Origin: Azolla caroliniana
Taxonomy: Eukaryota; Plantae; Polypodiophyta
DNA: 13,260 nt
Reading direction: 5' to 3'
NCBI GenBank assembly: GCA_043228905.1
Contig: JBHGNT010000976.1
Span: 1 to 13,260 of the forward strand
The position numbers were made by a program, and so were the translations under genes. Position 1 is the first letter of the stretch. Each line of letters begins with the position of its first letter. Under the pieces are notes generated by a model that had not been told where the DNA came from, did not search any database, and worked only from the letters and a program-made list of their open reading frames with translations. This document shows, piece by piece, positions 1 through 13,260 of the stretch.

Positions 1-519
1 AAATAACCCATAATGTGTGTAAGTATAAATACACTTAGGCAAAAACATAGTGTGATGCATTGTAGAATAGAAAGAATAGAATAGCGTAGAGTTCCTATAG
101 ATGTGTGTTACAGAGTGAAGAGTGAGTGCGTGATAGTGAGAGTAGCGCCATAGTTGTGTGAGCTTAGTAACTGTGTGTTACAGAGTGAAGAGTGAGTGCG
201 TGATAGTGAGAGTAGCGCCATAGTTGTGTGAGCTTAGTAACTGTGTGTTACAGAGTGAAGAGTGAGAGTGGCGCCATAGCTGTGTGAGCTTGGACGCCAA
301 GAACCCTACATGGTGGATACACTCTGTGCAGAGAGAGTGTTGTATACTATCTCCTTTGTATTGTCCATTGTATAGTGGATCTTTGTTCCCGTGGTTTGCC
401 CCGTTTAGGGTTTCCACATTAAATTGTGTATTCAGTGCATTTGTTGTTTTTCTATTTCCGCATTATTGTGCATTTCATAATCGGATTTCCTCACAAATCT
501 CCATGATCGAAGACCAACA
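1..519 (+). repeat. 5' LTR of copia element (partial)
   Basis: Ends in CA 3 nt before the PBS. 377-519 aligns ungapped to 3598-3740 (21 mismatches in 143 nt by manual count). TATAAATA at 24-31. Confidence 0.9.
102..291 (+). repeat. 70-bp tandem repeat inside the LTR
   Basis: 102-171 and 172-241 are identical. The third copy (242-291) lacks 14 bp between AGTGAG direct repeats. Confidence 0.95.
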
Positions 520-522
520 AAC

Positions 523-534
523 TGGTATCAGAGC
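523..534 (+). promoter_or_regulatory. Primer binding site, tRNA-iMet
   Basis: TGGTATCAGAGC directly after the LTR end; canonical plant copia PBS. Confidence 0.95.
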
Positions 535-547
535 TTGAGGTGCAAGC

Positions 548-3500
548 ATGGAAGCATGCGTGAGTGGCTTCCTAGGCATGATAGTTCTACACTTTCAGAA
601 CTTTGCAGACTGGAAGATAAAGATGGAAGGCCTTCTCTTAGTCAAAGACCTATACGAGCCCATCGATAGAGCATAAATACCCACGGGACTATTACAGTCT
701 GAATGGAAAGTTCTGAACAGAAAGGCGGTGGCCACCATTAGATAGTGTGTTGATGTGAGTGTCCTTCAGCATGTGCCAAACGACACAAATGCGTACGAGA
801 TGTGCCAGAACTTGTCAGGTCTATATGAGTGGAAGAATGCCATCAATGAAACATTTTTGATGAGAAAGATTGTGAGGTTGAAGTATAGGGACGGGGAAAG
901 CATAGTCGAGCATGTAAGCACATTCATGGGGTATGTAATCCAGATTGTGGCAACTAAACTTTTCCTTAAGGATGCAATTCAGGCCATCCTGCCACTGTGT
1001 AGACTACCGGACAAGTGGGAGAACCTGGTGGTGACTCTCAACACTACGTTTGAAGAAGAGAACTTGTCTCTACAAATGGTACAGACAAGCATCTTTAGCG
1101 AGGAGACAAGAAGGAAGGACAAGGGTGTCCTATCCCAGTCGGAGTCAAATCTGACTCAACATACATGTAGGGGAAGAAATCGGCAAAGAAGTCCACAAAG
1201 AACGGAGAAGTCCTAAGCCAAATCCAAGTCTAGAGTCAAGCTAGCATGCTTCTATTGTGGAAAGCCTAGACACTTCGAGAGGGACTGACAACACATGATG
1301 AAGGACAAAGGTGTCCATAATAATGTCGAACCCAGGAAGATTCCTGATGAAAAGTGCACATTGGTCGTAGATACAAGTGTTAAGGAGATTTTGTTCATTT
1401 GTGAATAGGCAAGCACAAATCTTGCAAGTGAAGAGTGTACTTGGGTAATCGATTGGGGCGGATCTTTCCACATAACTCCATCGAGAGAGTGTTTCTTAAC
1501 TTGCATAGCCGGGGATCATGGCTATGTAAAGATGGGAGATAATGAGGAGTGCAAGATAGCGGACATAGGAAGTGTAAGCCTGATGACGTCGACAGATTAT
1601 CGATTTAATATGAGGGAAGTTCGAGATGTCCTCGATATCATATTGATTTGATATCGACTGGAAGGCTAGATGATGAAGGCTACAATGGTAGCTTTTGAAA
1701 TGGCAAGTGGAAGTTCTATCGAGGAAACCTCATAGTGGCCCGAGCACAGAAACAGGGCACATTGTATATGATGCATGTCCGACTGTGCAAGTCAAAAATG
1801 AACGTGGCAGCCAACTCGAGTGGAGAGTTAGGGCATAAGAGGCTAGACCATATGAGTTAGAAAGGAATGCATCTACTAGCTGAACAGGAACTTCTCCCAG
1901 AAGTGAAAGGCGTACACTTGGAGAAGTGTGTCGGGTGCTTAGTCGGAAAGCAGAACAGAACAACATTCCACTCAAGACCACCGAAAAGAAGAGAAATGCT
2001 CTTGAAACTAGTGCACACCGATGTGTGCTATGTGGAGGCTCCATCACATCGAGGCGGACAGTACTTCGTCACGTTCATCGATGACTACTATCAAAAATTG
2101 TGGGCTTTAGTACTAATATCGAAGGATCAAGTATTGTCGTTCTTCAAGGAGTTCCAAGCAACGACAGAAAGAGAGTCAAGTCAGAAGTTGAAGGTGGTCC
2201 CAACCGACAACGGTGGCGAATATAGAGGGCATTTCAAAGAATACTGCGAGGCCCAAGGTATTCGAATCGAATACATAGTGCAAAAGACCCCAGCATTGAA
2301 CGGGCTTGTAGAGAGGATGAATCAGACGATAATGGAAAGAGTAAGGAGCATGATGTTGCATGCTATACTGGCGAAAATGTATTGGAATGAGACGATGTAT
2401 ACAACTATTTATTTGATCAATAGGTCTCCCTCAATACCATTGAAAGGTGATGTCCCACATTAGCCCAAAGTCTTTGCGGAGAAAGAGAAAGAGAACCTAC
2501 TATGTCAACTAAAGAAAATCTTGTATGGTTCGAAACAAGCTCCATGCCAATGGTATAAGAAGTTCGAGTCCTTCATGTTGGAATATAGGTTCCAGAAAAC
2601 ACAAGTTGATCAGTATGTGTACGTAAAGAGGTATGATGAGGGTTACTTCTTAATTCTCTTATTATATGTGGATGACATCTTGATAGTCAGACAAGACACG
2701 AAGAGGATCGTGAGCTTAAAGAAAGCTCTAGGCAAGTCGTTTGCAATAAAAGAACTTGGACCCGCTAAACAGATTTTAGAGATGCACATAGTTTGGGACA
2801 GAACTAAGAAAGTGTTGTGGTTGTCACAAGAGAAGTATGTGACAAAGATCCTAGAAAGATTCAACATGTCGGAAGCAAAGCTAGTCGGCTCTATGTCACC
2901 GACCAACTAAGCTAAATGTTAAGCAATGCCTAAGGGGTGACAAAGAAAAGGTTGAGATGAGGAAAGTACGATATGCCTTTAAAGCCATCGGCAGTTTAAT
3001 GTATGTTATGGTTTGTACGAGACCATACATAGCATTTGCTATGGGGACAGTAAGCCGATATAGGAGTAATCTAGGAAGAGAACATTGGGCAACTATTAAA
3101 TAGATACTCAGGTACTTGAAAGCCACCTTTGGGGTATGCCTAAGGTATGGTTGAAGGGTTTACCGACTCGGAAACATTGGGGGACACAAACTCAATTTCA
3201 TCTACTTCAGGGTACATGATGACTTATGCATGGGGAGTAATGTCGTGGCAATCACAACTTCAAAAATATGTGGCCTTGTTGACCATAGAGGCAGAGTATA
3301 TGGCAGCGGTAGAGGCTGGCAAAGAGCTGATCTGGATGAGAAATTTTCTCAGTGAGTTAGGAATGAAGCAAAGGGAATCCTTGCTTCACTGTGATAGCCA
3401 CAACCCCATACATCTAGCCAAGAACGCTATGTACCACTCCTGAACCAAGCACATATAGAGAAGGTATCACTGGTTATGGGAGAGAGTGAAAGATGGAGAG

Positions 3501-3600
3501 TTTACTCTTGCAAAGATCCATACTGACCAAAATGGATACGACATGCTCACAAAGAACCTATCGATGGACAAACTCAAAGTATGTCGACAAAGGACAAGGA
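548..3600 (+). pseudogene. Copia gag-pol polyprotein, disrupted
   Basis: ATG 548 (…NFADWKIKMEGLLLVKDLY…). Zinc knuckle CFYCGKPRHFERD* (1247-1288). Protease WVIDWGGSFH (D at 1451). Integrase HKRLDH…CVGC, VHTDVC, TDNGGEY, NGLVERMN. RT LYGSKQAPCQWY, LLYVDD. RNase H FTDS…EAEY…LHCDS…DMLTK. Many in-frame stops (e.g. 674, 743, 1214, 2461, 3441) and frameshifts (~1645, ~2908, ~3148). Confidence 0.95.
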
Positions 3601-3740
3601 TCTCTATTTCCGTGGTTTTCCCTGTTTAGGGTTTCCACGTAAAACTGTGTACTCTGTGCATTGCCTATTTTTTTGTTCCCGCATTATTGTGCATTTCATA
3701 ATCGGATTTCCTCACGAATCTCAGTAATCGAAGACCAACA
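3598..3740 (+). repeat. 3' LTR remnant (last 143 bp only)
   Basis: Direct repeat of 377-519 ending GAAGACCAACA; fused directly to the end of RNase H coding sequence with no PPT. Confidence 0.9.
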
Positions 3741-4435: not shown

Positions 4436-4698
4436 CACTACCTCGACAAACCCTCCACCTAAGAGAGTATTGCATCCCTTGTCAATGTCATAGTACCTGT
4501 TATTGAAAGTTGTTCCACACATTGTCAATTGCCATCAATGCCATATTATGACTCCAATTTAACATATTTATTATCAATATATACAATTAAATATTCGCAT
4601 TCATATGTGGTGTGCGTTTATATTACACACTAATATGAGGTGTTGAAAAATGTGGTTTGATACAAACAATATGATATGAGGTGATCATGAGTTCTTAC

Positions 4699-4982
4699 CA
4701 AAACGATTTTGAGAAGGCCTTTCTCCAATCTCCATTATGTTCATGAGCTTGGCCACACCATTCCACGAAGAAGATCAAAGACATTGTGACAATAAATAAT
4801 GCTCCAATGGTTATCCAAAGTTGCCAAGAGAAAGGGGAAATGAATGTCCAGAATGAAATATTACTCCTAGGTTGAAGTGGCGCAATCATTTGAAGACTCG
4901 ATTCTATATATGGCTGGGTAAAGTCTACTAACTTTAACCGGTCACTAGTGATCGTCAAATCAGCAACTACTCCATCTACGTC
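4699..4982 (-). CDS. GLR: Glutamate receptor-like channel (GLR), coding exon 2: end of S1, pre-M1, M1
   Basis: Acceptor catag| then DVDGVVADLTITSDRLKLVDFTQPYIESSLQMIAP…FISPFSWQLWITIGALFIVTMSLIFFVEW…SFW split TG|gtaag (phase 2). These match plant GLR motifs (D.TI..R..VDFT.PY; PF…LW) and the usual GLR intron positions. No stops. Confidence 0.93.
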
Positions 4983-6028
4983 CTATGACCATGCATGCAT
5001 ACAGTGAAAACCAATACAAACGTATTCCTGGAGCACATAATTAATTAAAACCTTATTAATCCAACTTGTTGTATGCTACGTAAATATCATTATCAAGCAG
5101 TGGAAATAATGAGTCGAATTATTCATGAGCTACATACCTTGGAGATTTACTCACACCGTTTACATCAAAGTTGCCAAGGTATGTCATGGTGCTACGATAT
5201 TCATCACACTTATTATAGTGCATACATTTTTGGCTCTTACTCCATACACTTGTACTTGATTGCACATGTATTTCTTTGAGTAAAAATTTCAATCTTTGGT
5301 ATTAAATTTGCTCAAACTATTCCTTGGACCATTCTACACAAGGATTACTAACAAAGTTACTTTATCTCTTCGAAGTGAGCACATCGTACTCTCTTGAGAG
5401 TAGCTTTTCCATACAATACAACAAAACCAATTATTCACCGAATAAGCCTCTCATATTTGACTTATTTGGCGCTAAGAAATATAGATCTTGCACAATTAAT
5501 CAAATAGATCTTACAAGAATAACTAGAAAACATTACCTTGGCCAACCGATGCTTGAATAGTATATCATGGAATGTCAAAATAATTTTAGCGATGCTAAAA
5601 ATTACTTTTAAAACACTCATATGTATTGGAGTTCAAACTCTTGTCCACTGGATCAAACCCTCAATTATAGATGGAATTATCAACAATTTGTTAGTGCCTA
5701 TGTCAATCTTTGAACGAGATTCCATGGTAAGGGGTATGATATTAGGACAATCTTAGTAATTTGTTACATATAGTCTCGAGGTATTTTATGGACTTAGATA
5801 TTAGTTTCTCCCTGTCTAGCCATGACATCCTACTTGAGGATTGCCACAATCCCTTATGTCTTTTCTATCATTAATGTGCACGTAGAAATTCTTGCTAACA
5901 TAGATATAAACACATTATCGAGGTCCATTTATCATAAATGATTAACCTTAAGCGATTGATTTTTACGAAAATTAAGTGTCATTACTACAACAAAAACAAA
6001 AAAAAATTACGTATAGCTAATGTAATAC
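4983..6028 (-). other. GLR intron 1 (GT-AG, phase 0, 1046 nt)
   Basis: AAG|gtatta donor at 6028, catag acceptor at 4983; joins …LVQKLVSK to DVDGVVAD… in frame. AT-rich. Confidence 0.88.
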
Positions 6029-6355
6029 CTTAGAGACAAGCTTTTGCACAAGGTCATTATAGGTTGGGTCTACAAGGCCATCTCCATAGCCAATTAATGT
6101 GTAATTAATACGATAATTAAGCTTCTCAACGCATTCTTGAAACACATTGATGGCGAAGCCGGAGAAATTGACGACGGAGTTGGGCGTGACCGGTATCTCA
6201 GATGATTGCCAACTCACAAACTCCTCGAATCCAAGTTTGAGAGGAACAAGGATCTTCAAGTTGGAGGAATTGGTCGCGTGCGCAGTCGGAAATTCAGGGG
6301 AGAAGAAGATGGCAAGCACTAGGAGAGCCGTGATGAGGCGCATCGGAGCATACAT
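6029..6355 (-). CDS. GLR: GLR coding exon 1: signal peptide plus start of S1 ligand-binding segment
   Basis: ACC-ATG at 6355 (alternative ATG 6343): MYAPMRLITALLVLAIFFSPEFPTAHA-TNSSNLKILVPLKLGFEEFVSW…FSGFAINVFQECVEKLNY…YTLIGYGDGLVDPTYNDLVQKL. This matches GLR S1 (LRIGVP..F.EFV; GYCIDVF; L.Y; P.Y..LV). Confidence 0.88.
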
Positions 6356-8600: not shown

Positions 8601-9321
8601 CCTTGTGGAGTCATACCTCCCTCAAATAGAGAGACCCATTGAAAGAGTTCATAAAGGTTTTCACATGCTCTCAATGTCATAACATGATCCTATAATAAAC
8701 ACGTTCGCGTTCAGAAGTGGAAGGATAGTGCATTCCATTTTTAGATTCTTTTTATAATTTTGCAAATTTATGCAATATATAGAAACTTGTTACATTAGTA
8801 TCACATGTTCGTCAACCCATATAGAATTTGCTAAATTATTAATAGTTAACAAGTTTTAAAGTAAAAAACATGTATTCTTTGAATATTTATAAAGTTGATG
8901 ATCTCTGAATACAAAATTTAATTAAAATTAAGAATATGACAATTGTTTATTCAATTGAAATGCTATATTATGTAATATGCAAAGTTGGTTGAAATATTGA
9001 GAAAATCATGAGCTCCAGACATAAAATGTAATTAAATTACAGGTTACGAACATGGTGTATACAACATTTGATAGCTATAGTTAGTGATTATGCATTATGC
9101 ACTCTAATACTTAGTGAATGCGGCCCGATATAATACCTTACTCTAATGTTAGTAAGAAAGAAGAAAATCAAACATATGGACAGTATGGACATAAAGTCCA
9201 TGTGAAATATCATCTAGAGTTTTCCCAATACACACACATGAATGAGGACATCCATACACACGTATCATATAGTGGATACACTTGGAGACTCATTATGGTC
9301 ACACCCAAAAGTAAGGCTTAC

Positions 9322-9972
9322 CAAACAAGGTTCTCTACACCATGACAACGAGATCTCAACGCTTGAGCCATAGAATATCTTTGGTCCATGCTATGAAAGA
9401 CCACTATTCTCCACAAGCTCGTTTTGGTCAACTTTTGCGAAATACTTCACCATTTTCTCCAATTGTTTGAACCTAAATGGTTAATCATCATAAGAAGATC
9501 CGACCATATATTAATCGTATGGAATATCCACAATGAGTAACGTGTAATGCTTGTTTGGCAACTTCTGGATCATCTTCGGCACATCACCATAGTACACATT
9601 ATAATACAATTCTTGGGTGATATCATTTTTGTGGCTAAACTTCTTGAAAGTTCCGTAATCGTCCACATCGAATGCCTTCATTAAGCACCGATTGTTTTGT
9701 TTCTGTGCTCTTTCAAGATGGGCAAGAAAGGAAGCTGGAAAATCATGTTTGTCTTTGACTTCTCCAGGCTTCTTGCTATGACATGGTTTCTATGTGAAAC
9801 AACAAAAGAAGTAACTCATACATTGTTCACATATGTAATAAACTAGAATGGCAAATTTCAAATATGTAATACTAACCCAATCCTTAAAAGCAATAAAATA
9901 TTCCGATAACTCCTTGTATGAAGATGTAATCGAATACTCTTCAGTCACTTGTTCTCATGTTAAGCAACCAAG
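9322..9972 (-). pseudogene. N-terminal/catalytic half of a beta-class N6-adenine/N4-cytosine DNA methyltransferase (N6_N4_Mtase-like), two exons, disrupted
   Basis: Exon 9972-9877 (LGCLT*EQVTEEY…FKDW), 87-nt intron gttagt…ttcacatag, exon 9789-9322: …YYGDVPKMIQKLPNKHYTLLIVDIPYD*… (motif IV DIPY at 9528-9517 in a GD…LP…L…DPPY context) …WRIVVFHS…NLVW TG|gtaag. Stops at 9513 and 9483, frameshift ~9432. Confidence 0.75.
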
Positions 9973-10343
9973 TGTTGCCGGTTAGGAACATGGCCTACCC
10001 TCCTTCGGGGTACGTATCAAGGTGATCGTGGTACAGGGTAGGAAATTGCATAGCGTGTGGAACGTACTGAGTTAGAGCATTGTCGTGAAAATACGACGAG
10101 GATACGTGAACTTGAGGTAGGACCCCAGGGCTTCCGACCAAAGGATATCAGTGCGTTTATACTTTTAACAATTAACGGAAATGAGAAAATATTGTAATTT
10201 TTCATTAGCAAAGGAAAAGAAAATTACAATATTTCTCATTTCCGTTAATTGTTAAAAGTATAAACGCATGAATCTCATATCCTTTGGTCGGAGGACCCGG
10301 GATCCTACCTCAAGTTCACGACACTCGTCGTATTTTCGCAACA
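9973..10343 (+). mobile_element. 5' LTR of a truncated LTR retrotransposon
   Basis: Starts TGTTGC exactly where the methyltransferase frame breaks, ends GCAACA, and is followed after 4 nt by a PBS. Left boundary could alternatively be 10081. No TSD visible. Confidence 0.65.
10081..10343. repeat. Long inverted repeat (foldback), arms 10081-10203 / 10219-10343
   Basis: Perfect 37-bp core 10152-10188 / 10232-10268, plus perfect blocks GAAAATACGACGAG, CGTGAACTTGAGGTAGGA and TCCGACCAAAGGATAT; ~15-nt loop. Confidence 0.95.
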
Positions 10344-10347
10344 TCTT

Positions 10348-10365
10348 TGGTGAACCCGACGTGAA
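10348..10365 (+). promoter_or_regulatory. Primer binding site complementary to tRNA-Trp
   Basis: TGGTGAACCCGACGTGAA is the reverse complement of …TTCACGTCGGGTTCACCA, the 3' end of plant cytosolic tRNA-Trp as I recall it. It lies 4 nt after the LTR-terminal CA. Confidence 0.8.
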
Positions 10366-10590
10366 ACAAGGCGGTAGGAGTGGGAGTGGGAGAATACCTT
10401 GTCAAGTCTATAAAACTTTTTGCATGAATGTCACTGTAAGATTAGGGTCATTATGGATATTAGGATACGTTAGGAAGACTTGAGGCTTTATTGTTTGACG
10501 TATTACCTACTAAATGCATTTGTACAAGGCATTCATCTCCAATATCCTTCTGCGACCTTTGACATATTACAAATATTGGGTCGCCGATAG

Positions 10591-10870
10591 AAGGCATTCA
10601 TCTCTTTTTGAACATAGTCCATGTGATTGAATGGTTAGTGTGGTTGAACATCTTTTTGTGGGCTACTACGATGCAATTACGAAGAGAAGGCTTGGGCACA
10701 TGTCAATGTAAAAAATGTTGTCAACTACATCATGCACCCATCGTTGACAAAGAAGCTACGCCATGTATCTAGCGATAAGAGCCTGTTGGTGAACCCCTAC
10801 CAAAAGCCACAAAGATTAATCAACCGCCTCATGGAGCTATTTTCAATTTTAGATTTGTTTTCTAGCACAT
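10591..10870 (+). pseudogene. C-terminal (SAM-binding) exon of a beta-class N6/N4 DNA methyltransferase, disrupted
   Basis: *MVSVVEHLFVGYY…(frameshift)…NYIMHPSLTKKLRHVSSDKSLLVNPYQKPQRLINRLMELFS-ILDLFSST. This fits the HPxQKP..L..L…S..GD.VLDPFxGSG consensus (NPYQKP 10792-10809, ILDLFSST 10846-10869). Possible donor gtatat at 10871. Confidence 0.75.
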
Positions 10871-10930
10871 GTATATAATATAAAACTTTTCATATCAATT
10901 TAGATTAACGTATAGTCCAAATACAACAAT

Positions 10931-13260
10931 TGCCGGGGAAGACCAGCCCGTAATCACCCTTCATTCTCCAAGTCGTTGTCCGCGTTGGTGTTGTCGTCAC
11001 CATCGTCTAGGCTTGCCAGGTCCAGTTCGTCCTCGTGTCGCTTCTTAAATACTTTGATCCTCTTCCCTGCTACTGGCACATCTATCCGCATCCTCTCAAG
11101 CTCCACGAGATGGTACATGCCATTGTCGTTAGCGCTCGTCACGGCGTAGGGCCCGAACCACCTCTTCGCAAATTTTCGCACTGTTTTGTGCTGATTGTTG
11201 AGGTTGTTGTCATATACCAGCAGCCAATCGCCTTCTTCAATCTCCTTCGGCCGGAGCCGGTGTGTCCGATCGAACCGGGCCTTGTTCCTTCCCCGTGTTG
11301 TGCGCAACTTCTCCCTTGCTCGCTCTACGTCCTCTGGTCTCCGTTCAAGCTGTCGAATCCACGCCGCCAATAGCTCTTCCCGGCTCATTTCGTTCCTCCA
11401 ATCCACCGTGGCCCACGAAGTGATTGCCCGCTCCACCAACATAATCGGTTTATGCCCGTACATCAACTCCGCCGGCATGAACCCAGTCACCAAACTGTGC
11501 GCCAGTCCGCCCACAATGCGTAAGGTAGAAGCCGCGGCCAATTCCCAACCAGTCCTTCACACGCTCGCACCAACGCCTTCACGATTGGGCCTTGCCCTCG
11601 TTCCACCTTCCCGTTCGCCTCTGGGTTGTACGCCGTAGTGAGGGAGAGCTTGACCCCGAACCGGTCGAACAACTCTTCGACTTCCTGCGCGTCCAGCTCC
11701 CCCCAATCTGCCACAATCTTTCCTACGCACCCGTACCAGCACACCACCTCCTTAATCTGGAATCGTCATACCGCCAAAGTCGTCTTATTCTGCAGTGCGC
11801 GGACCTCCACTTGGTTCTTCAAGTCTTCTCGGGCCAGTACCAAGTACCGCATCTGTCCTACCCCCATCGACATCGTCACCAAATCTACCATCCACTTGAA
11901 ATGGACGGTTGGCGGGTAGGTCGGGTGTAGCTCGTCTCGATGCCAGATCATGGAGTGCATCTGGAAACTTTCGCACGTCGTCACGAACCAGTGCATGTCT
12001 CAGTATAGCATTAGCCACCAATACCTCTCCTTTAGCTTCTCGAATGTGACCCAAGTCTTGCGGTGACCGTCCCAAGGACTCTCATGGTACGCCGCGAGCA
12101 GCATCTGCCGCTCCTCCTTTCCTGCCACTACTCGTAGTGGGACGCCGCCTCTCTTCTTTGGATGCTTCCATAGGTTCCCGTCCCATAGGAAGAACCGGTA
12201 CGCTTTCTTCCGGACTCGGTTAGCTTCGCCTTTCGTCCAGGCGGCATCCAACGTCATTGTCTTCAGGAATCTACGAATCCTAAGACACTCCCCTTCATAT
12301 TCACCCTCGTTAAATTCCCTACCCTTGTTAGGCAAGCCGACTCGAAGAAGTCCTCGCCGACTTCTTCGTCCTCCGAAACCATGCCGTCCTCGTCGTCGAA
12401 CGTCGCTCTCGAAAGTATGTCGGCCATGGCGTTGTCCTTTCCGGAGATGTGTCGTACCTCCAGATTCAGGGACTTAATGTACGTGATCCACCTGAGCATT
12501 GCTAGGTCCGGCGTCGCGCATCCGGAAACCATCCCAAGGATCGGTAGGAAGTCCGTCTCGATTATTACCTCCGTCCCGATAAGATAATCTTTATCGGCCT
12601 TGACTGCCGAAACAATACCCCAGCGCTCGCGCTTAGTTTGGGCATATCCTCATTGTCGCTCACTGAGTACCTTCGCTCTGAACCGGATAGGGACCCGTGT
12701 GCCGCCCTCGTCTTCCTGACTGATCACCCATCTTATCCATGTCGGGCTCATATCTACGGTTACATAGATCAGAACATCCTTGCTGTAAACCGCTTTACAA
12801 AGTGTCGGTGCCGCGGTAAGCGCTTCTTTCAATCTTCGGACCGACTCCGTATGTTCCTCGTCCTAGTTGAATTTCCGCCCTTTCTTTTGCAGCCCGTGGA
12901 GTGGTTCCGCGATGTGCGCATAATGTGGAACCCAGATGTGGTAGAACGCACACACCCCCAGCAACCTCCGCACCTCCGTTACTGACTTGCACTCCTTCTT
13001 CATCGCGGAAATGGCTTTGACCTTTGCCGGAGACGGTCTCCGGCCATAAGGCCCACACAAGTGATCGACGACCATGATTTCCGACTGTCCGAAAGCCGAC
13101 TTCTCCCTGGAGAAGGTGAGCTGCGCGCCTTCTAGTCTTTGTAGCAGCTTCTCGTAGTCTCCGATGTGGTCTGAGATGAATTTCCGACACCCGTCTGGTC
13201 TGATCGTTTCGTCCTTATCCTCCACCGGACATCCCTTGATTGGAATGTCATCCAAAAACG
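10931..13260 (-). mobile_element. Degenerate Ty3/gypsy pol (RT-RNaseH-INT), running off the window end
   Basis: RT FLDDIPIKG…RRLLGVCAFY; RNase H VTVD…ETDFLP…KDNAMADILSR; integrase HESPWDGH…CES, WMVD, IVAD, YNPEANGKVER, WFGPY. Gypsy domain order; stops (12863, 12650, 12000, 11766) and frameshifts. Visibly more GC/CpG-rich than its flank. Confidence 0.95.

Follow-up and report, generated by a model that had tools for sequence, protein, structure and literature searches.

A stretch of Azolla caroliniana DNA (contig JBHGNT010000976.1; its 13,260 nucleotides are called the window here) encodes two peptides resembling parts of a bacterial-type DNA amino-methyltransferase, which raises the questions of which gene they come from and what such a gene would do in a fern. 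The preliminary description had joined both peptides into one intron-containing pseudogene. Our analysis shows instead that two copies of a single Sola-like cut-and-paste transposon type have left dead fragments in the window; intact copies of this type elsewhere in the genome carry genes for a transposase and a predicted ParB-methyltransferase.

Relics of two elements in the window

The relics and the repeat between them are arranged as follows.

8698..8733, no strand assigned: methyltransferase-side TIR of a family-A-type element, with 34/36 bases as in the intact-copy TIR
9322..9789, minus strand: ParB-methyltransferase exon 4, with motif IV DIPY at 9528-9517, two stops and compensating frameshifts
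9790..9876, minus strand: intron 3, GT-AG, at the same position as in intact copies
9877..9973, minus strand: 3' part of exon 3 (LGCLT*EQV...FKDW), truncated upstream
10081..10343, no strand assigned: foldback repeat of 263 bp between both relics, a separate dispersed repeat
10388..10562, minus strand: transposase fragment (residues ~406-458) of a family B/C element (tblastn E 3e-8; 83% to family C DNA)
10612..10870, plus strand: exon 5 relic (NPYQKP ... DLFSST, motif I decayed) of a family B/C element, 73-74% to exon 5 of copies L122/L126

Both peptides are indeed present, and the statement that the open reading frame track showed none of this does not hold, as both are found there when read stop to stop. 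Six-frame translation places GDVPKMIQKLPNKHYTLLIVDIPY in the minus-strand exon with DIPY, whose acceptor AG is at 9790 and whose donor GT is at 9321, with a further GT donor upstream at 9876 on the same strand. In contrast, NPYQKP starts at 10792 and ILDLFSST ends at 10869 on the plus strand, followed by a GT donor at 10871. The minus-strand relic (8698-9973) comprises a TIR, part of exon 3, intron 3 and exon 4, with exons 5-6 missing; 8697-8834 aligned with an intact element end, and 9301-9973 shares 85-88% identity with family-A-type copies, whereas 10388-10883 shares 74-83% identity with family B/C copies. Since the two peptides thus lie on opposite strands and belong to different families, they cannot be spliced together, and a single spliced gene across 9322-10870 was ruled out. 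In intact copies the two peptides do come from one type of gene, as the one-pseudogene reading would have it, but in the window the foldback repeat and the transposase fragment also lie between them, and we regard the chance of one methyltransferase pseudogene from 9322 to 10870 as practically nil.

The exon 5 relic and the transposase scrap derive from the same B/C element and, judging from the coordinates of copy L126, appear to have come together through the loss of about 5.6 kb of internal sequence. The foldback repeat gave no match in intact elements and dispersed matches of 78-90% identity (40 of 1297 candidates scored), and is likely a MITE. The earlier view of a dead copy was well founded: the stops and compensating frameshifts are there, and by comparison with intact copies a G has become S and 5 aa are lost. 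What is left of the transposon/methyltransferase system in the window is wreckage, and the palindrome array described below is absent there. The whole relic block belongs to a segment duplicated in tandem on contig C2, which accounts for the 92-100% identical matches of the window.

Other parts of the window carry features of their own. Exons of a glutamate-receptor-like gene lie at 4695-6330 on the minus strand, with matches to Lig_chan-Glu_bd and SBP_bac_3 just under cut-off; the block that contains them has several tandem copies around 21.04-21.24 Mb of contig C2, a possible tandem GLR array. A decayed Ty1/copia element occupies 377-3740, with LTR-like repeats at 377-519 and 3598-3740 (85% identical) and gag and integrase matches, and a decayed Ty3/gypsy pol (RT, RNase H and integrase-like frames; ~10920-13260, minus strand) directly follows the exon 5 relic.

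Anatomy of the intact element

In the 523-Mb genome, a first look gave 1061 candidates for one window peptide and 978 for the other (150 scored each), and the reference copies for the intact element were taken from the top identical matches. In intact copies, the transposase and ParB-methyltransferase genes are arranged divergently, head to head. Family A elements are ~9.1-9.4 kb long and have TIRs of 28-36 bp; of 20 loci retrieved, 18 include both ends, and 17 of these show a 4-bp TSD. Families B (7.6 kb) and C (~9 kb) have the same layout, their own TIRs, a protein about 50% identical and a 4-bp TSD in 3/3, so that the three families span 7.6-9.4 kb with TIRs of 28-40 bp. Family A has 636 exact TIR ends and families B/C have 344, against 0 for the control, which points to several hundred elements. 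The proposal of a multi-copy, transposon-borne family was thus confirmed by about a thousand candidates, the TIRs, the 4-bp TSDs, the linked transposase and the open copies, and we hold this anatomy to be close to certain. Since intact family A copies lie only ~1% from their own majority sequence, this family appears to have moved recently. Short, internally deleted derivatives with both TIRs form non-autonomous members, including a 1.9-kb example with a 4-bp TSD (C9a 14829-16755) and others seen as TIR pairs ~4 kb apart.

The transposase gene is a single exon of 927 aa that matches DUF7869 (E 1e-50) and contains the candidate acidic catalytic motifs IDGMDQ, QLDNT and GHTHDHID. We read its product as a Sola-like transposase; the comparison with the published Sola1 profile was a by-eye reading of positions 5-30 only. 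The Sola superfamily is described as defined by a 4-bp TSD and TIRs (PMC10741241), both of which the intact elements possess, and Sola elements are recorded from Physcomitrella (PMC9033089, PMC10741241). Since the AWWT target preference given for insect Sola1 (PMC3845634) fits only 2 of 18 TSDs, we file the element as Sola-like rather than as strict Sola1. A Helitron or other rolling-circle element, hinted at by a subterminal hairpin, was ruled out by the TIRs and 4-bp TSDs.

The ParB-methyltransferase gene of family A consists of six exons and five GT-AG introns, with a spliced frame of 974 aa (splicing predicted from DNA). The preliminary description was right on spliceosomal introns, and the lengths of exons 3-5 recur closely in families B and C (139/464/290, against 139/467/293 in A). 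Of 26 young copies, 12 keep the 974-aa frame open and 5 have both genes open (27 copies tried, one excluded with exon 1 unmapped), although 12/26 overstates the family average, because the copies were picked from top identical matches; one of the 12 open copies has a G-to-R change in motif I. In families B/C, 6 of 11 copies read open from exon 3 through to the stop, while 3 of 11 were unspliceable with the anchors used. By the NG86 method on single copies, limited to unsaturated pairs with dS saturated for most family pairs, dN/dS of the methyltransferase was 0.051 (B vs C) and 0.029 (L164 vs L168), compared with 0.063 and 0.058, respectively, for the transposase, and pN/pS among 20 young copies was 0.27. 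These values show that the ParB-methyltransferase gene is under purifying selection.

Giant algal transposons are described as carrying many accessory genes (PMC12477816), and the Azolla gene could by analogy be neutral captured cargo or a passenger host gene. This is very improbable and largely refuted: the methyltransferase has a dN/dS as low as that of the transposase, its exon structure is conserved in three families, and a divergent transposase accompanied it in 12 of the 12 metagenome loci with >2.5 kb upstream (among the best 80 of 136 loci). The 80 metagenome loci are not independent hosts, since they come from one assembly set and some are near-identical to Azolla families.

A predicted ParB fold joined to an amino-methyltransferase

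We then asked what the 974-aa protein is. The assignment to the beta-class amino-methyltransferases stands: intact exon 5 scored 34 bits on PF01555, above the cut-off of 26.7, although neither decayed window peptide scores on this profile alone, and a Ginkgo homologue scored 68.9 bits. A profile built from 17 homologues matched DpnA/M1.HpyAVI, CcrM, MboIIA and RsrI at E values of 8e-10 to 1e-5, and the rotifer N4CMT at 1e-3. The IV-before-I motif order, unreadable in the window, holds in the spliced intact copies, with DIPY at ~692 and DLFSGTG at ~852, and likewise in families B and C. The fold was modelled on the Ginkgo homologue rather than on the Azolla spliced protein (P0076, residues 351-604; mean pLDDT 57, higher in the domain), and superposed on CcrM with Z 22.1 and rmsd 3.3 over 222 aligned residues; Z was 17-22 against DNA methyltransferases and 12-13 against METTL3/MTA1. 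Through this model of a homologue, the 974-aa protein is predicted to carry the full beta-class amino-methyltransferase fold. Pfam scans of exons 2 and 4 found no significant family, and a word-based search for longer proteins that used exon 4 as query, a weak test, returned none.

Motif IV reads D-I-P-Y in Azolla and D-F/A/V/L-P-Y in homologues, with the first proline of the canonical DPPY replaced. DIPYG and DLFSGTG are near-invariant among the metagenome loci spanning them, and D, PY and F/C-S-G-x-G are conserved from Chara to Ginkgo. The protein is quite probably a catalytically active DNA methylase. A motif IV starting with D rather than S favours 6mA over 4mC, by a rule of thumb with known exceptions; SPPY, the motif of the 4mC writers N4CMT and DN4MT, did not occur in the motif IV matches shown, which are of the D type.

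The extra N-terminal region suggested earlier is also borne out, by the ParB fold predicted for it, although the TWEQV quoted from it reads T*EQV in the window. A model of residues ~260-556 of the Azolla protein (pLDDT 80) matches ParB, Noc, KorB, PadC and sulfiredoxin; the top Foldseek matches were ParB/Noc (E 2e-5 to 9e-4), and the VIA comparison gave Z 9.8 for PadC (rmsd 3.1, 100 aligned) and Z 8.3 for pNOB8 ParB (rmsd 4.7, 210 aligned), where a Z near 8-10 is moderate. The N-terminal part is thus predicted to adopt a ParB fold followed by a helical DNA-binding fold. Bacterial ParB CTPases possess a GxxRxxA CTP motif with arginine and are loaded in a parS-dependent manner. The nucleotide motif of the Azolla protein reads GGSHSAEAR, which lacks this arginine and which we take to be closer to the sulfiredoxin type. 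With the non-canonical DIPY and a ParB motif without arginine, either activity may therefore be altered. An Atlas search with exon 2 (L069:5255-7003, the ParB-like region) returned an unnamed cluster at 0.97 and, as a lead only, fungal DUF3723 clusters at 0.88-0.89; DUF3723 is a common Starship cargo. Another protein, P0155, joins a SAM (sterile alpha motif) domain to a segment homologous to the ParB region's helical part.

The intron-1 array, its possible use and related systems

Intron 1 of the ParB-methyltransferase gene contains an array of the interrupted palindrome CGATRC-N3-GYATCG. The 17 elements analysed hold 136 such sites in intron 1 and 0 elsewhere, with a spacing of 51-52 bp in 99 of 117 cases, and the genome contains 4352 sites in total, against 17 for a reversed-pattern control. 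The palindrome core is common to diverged families with saturated synonymous sites, while the flanks differ and the spacings are 50-52 or 40-41 bp; spacings of 51-52 and 40-41 bp correspond to about 5 and 4 helical turns, respectively. In many units the palindrome forms part of a longer perfect hairpin whose arms vary, and family B has spread with only 1-2 palindromes. The array lies 4-5 kb from either TIR and adjoins the promoters. A phased, interrupted palindrome beside a gene with a ParB fold is a candidate docking site, and on balance we favour the array as that of the ParB-methyltransferase.

As the best mechanism, we propose self-addressed DNA amino-methylation via the intron-1 array, to which we give a probability of roughly 0.55. 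A ParB-like dimer would recognise CGATRC-N3-GYATCG and load or spread at the array, beside the shared divergent promoter; the methyltransferase would mark nearby element DNA, likely at adenine, and the mark would favour expression or mobilisation of its own transposon family. If this is true, the system would also supply non-flowering plants with 6mA or 4mC independently of host enzymes.

The traces of host 5mC speak against a mark that simply counters silencing. In 18 young copies, CG/CHG transitions reached 1.0-1.9% in both genes, compared with 0.1-0.6% for CHH and A/T, so that most copies look 5mC-methylated for most of their life. The CG positions of the palindromes had decayed at 9 of 636 (1.4%), like the rest of the element, and CG/CHG decay in these copies gave no sign that the palindromes or the element are shielded from host 5mC. 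Any protection from 5mC would be transient or tissue-limited.

This absence of protection from CG/CHG decay would also fit a protein that serves as a transposition accessory, bending, bridging or licensing DNA at the array, with a methyl mark that times transposition instead of opposing silencing, as Dam hemimethylation times transposition for some IS elements. The phased spacing of the palindromes and the strict transposase linkage across ~50% protein divergence agree with such a role; even so, we consider it unlikely, with the array 4-5 kb from either TIR and beside the promoters, and with many Sola elements described as having a transposase only (PMC3845634). Rather improbable, in our judgement, is a methyltransferase domain that works on RNA or serves as a scaffold without catalysis, with the palindromes as hairpins in the intron-1 transcript. 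The longer perfect hairpins with variable arms, the non-canonical DIPY and the frequent shift of eukaryotic amino-methyltransferases to RNA (as surveyed in PMC4738411) would suit it, but the conservation of D, PY and F/C-S-G-x-G, the closer resemblance of the fold to DNA enzymes than to METTL3/MTA1, and the ~51-bp phasing, which fits binding of double-stranded DNA, all argue against it.

The proposed self-marking has a precedent, and the preliminary description overrated the novelty of the gene. Sola1-1_Ec32 of Ectocarpus is described with an opposite-strand ParB and N4/N6 methyltransferase gene beside its transposase, and its authors propose self-modification and cite green and red algal cases (PMC12477816). 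The Azolla system is a new land-plant member of this pairing already described in algae, sharing both the gene pair and the self-marking hypothesis, with the proteins likened by description rather than by sequence alignment. In contrast to Sola1-1_Ec32, given as 21.5 kb with a 282-bp TIR and 2 intact copies, the Azolla elements are 7.6-9.4 kb with 28-40 bp TIRs and many open copies; they live in a land plant, form three families and carry a phased palindrome array, which is not mentioned for Sola1-1_Ec32 (PMC12477816). ParB-linked eukaryotic adenine methylases are listed for algae and fungi, with few in land plants (PMC4738411). Our search of the full-text literature found no description of a ParB-methyltransferase gene in land-plant transposons; the array was not a search topic, and Repbase plant Sola1 entries, possibly with this gene, and subscription papers were outside its scope. 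Transposons that bind and chemically mark their own DNA have so far been proposed from algal sequences, and the Azolla elements, with copies in which both genes are open, a candidate binding site and three families that have diverged in a land plant, make binding, base specificity and effect accessible to direct assay.

Other systems share parts of this design. The beta-class enzymes CcrM, M.BceJIV, M.MboIIA, M.RsrI and M1.HpyAVI have the same IV-to-I motif order, fold (Z 18-22) and PF01555 domain; unlike them, the Azolla protein has DIPY, introns and a ParB fusion, and is borne by a transposon without a partner restriction enzyme. The rotifer N4CMT, whose structure matches the Ginkgo homologue model with Z 18.4, and Marchantia DN4MT1 are likewise eukaryotic beta-class amino-methyltransferases of bacterial origin. 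They are described as host genes writing 4mC, with a chromodomain fusion or no extra domain and with TSPPY in Marchantia (PMC8885841, bioRxiv 10.1101/2021.02.12.428880), whereas the Azolla enzyme is transposon-borne, ParB-fused and of the D type. ParB, Noc and KorB with their parS-type palindromes have in common with it the predicted ParB fold and helical DNA-binding region with repeated palindromes adjacent, but the Azolla region is only 10-17% identical, has an altered nucleotide motif and comes without ParA. The VANDAL/VANC anti-silencing system also combines a DNA transposon, an accessory protein and tandem internal target motifs; VANC is described as removing 5mC, with targets that vary by family (PMC5735166), whereas the Azolla motif is conserved across families and, by the indirect measure of CG/CHG decay, no reduction of 5mC is apparent.

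Finally, we examined the distribution of the protein. Homologues were named from 10 looked up among 150 listed profile matches (756 matches at E 0.001), and include proteins from Ginkgo (4), Adiantum, Ceratopteris, Riccia sorocarpa and Chara braunii, the nearest named one being that of the fern Ceratopteris at 72%. These are known as proteins alone, transposase linkage having been read only in Azolla and the metagenome loci, and we suggest only tentatively a streptophyte-wide transposon lineage with a ParB-like clamp at a phased parS-like array, writing 6mA/4mC over its own promoters. If so, ferns, bryophytes and gymnosperms would have a transposon-encoded, sequence-programmed non-5mC DNA mark. 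No donor of the gene was identified among the 123 phage and 2 plasmid tblastn records, which covered the C-terminal methyltransferase part only (31-42%), and the two phage loci inspected held short stand-alone methylases. The Chara braunii protein (GBG86584.1, P0080) is an 1825-aa model with two tandem ParB-methyltransferase units, which may be two fused gene models.
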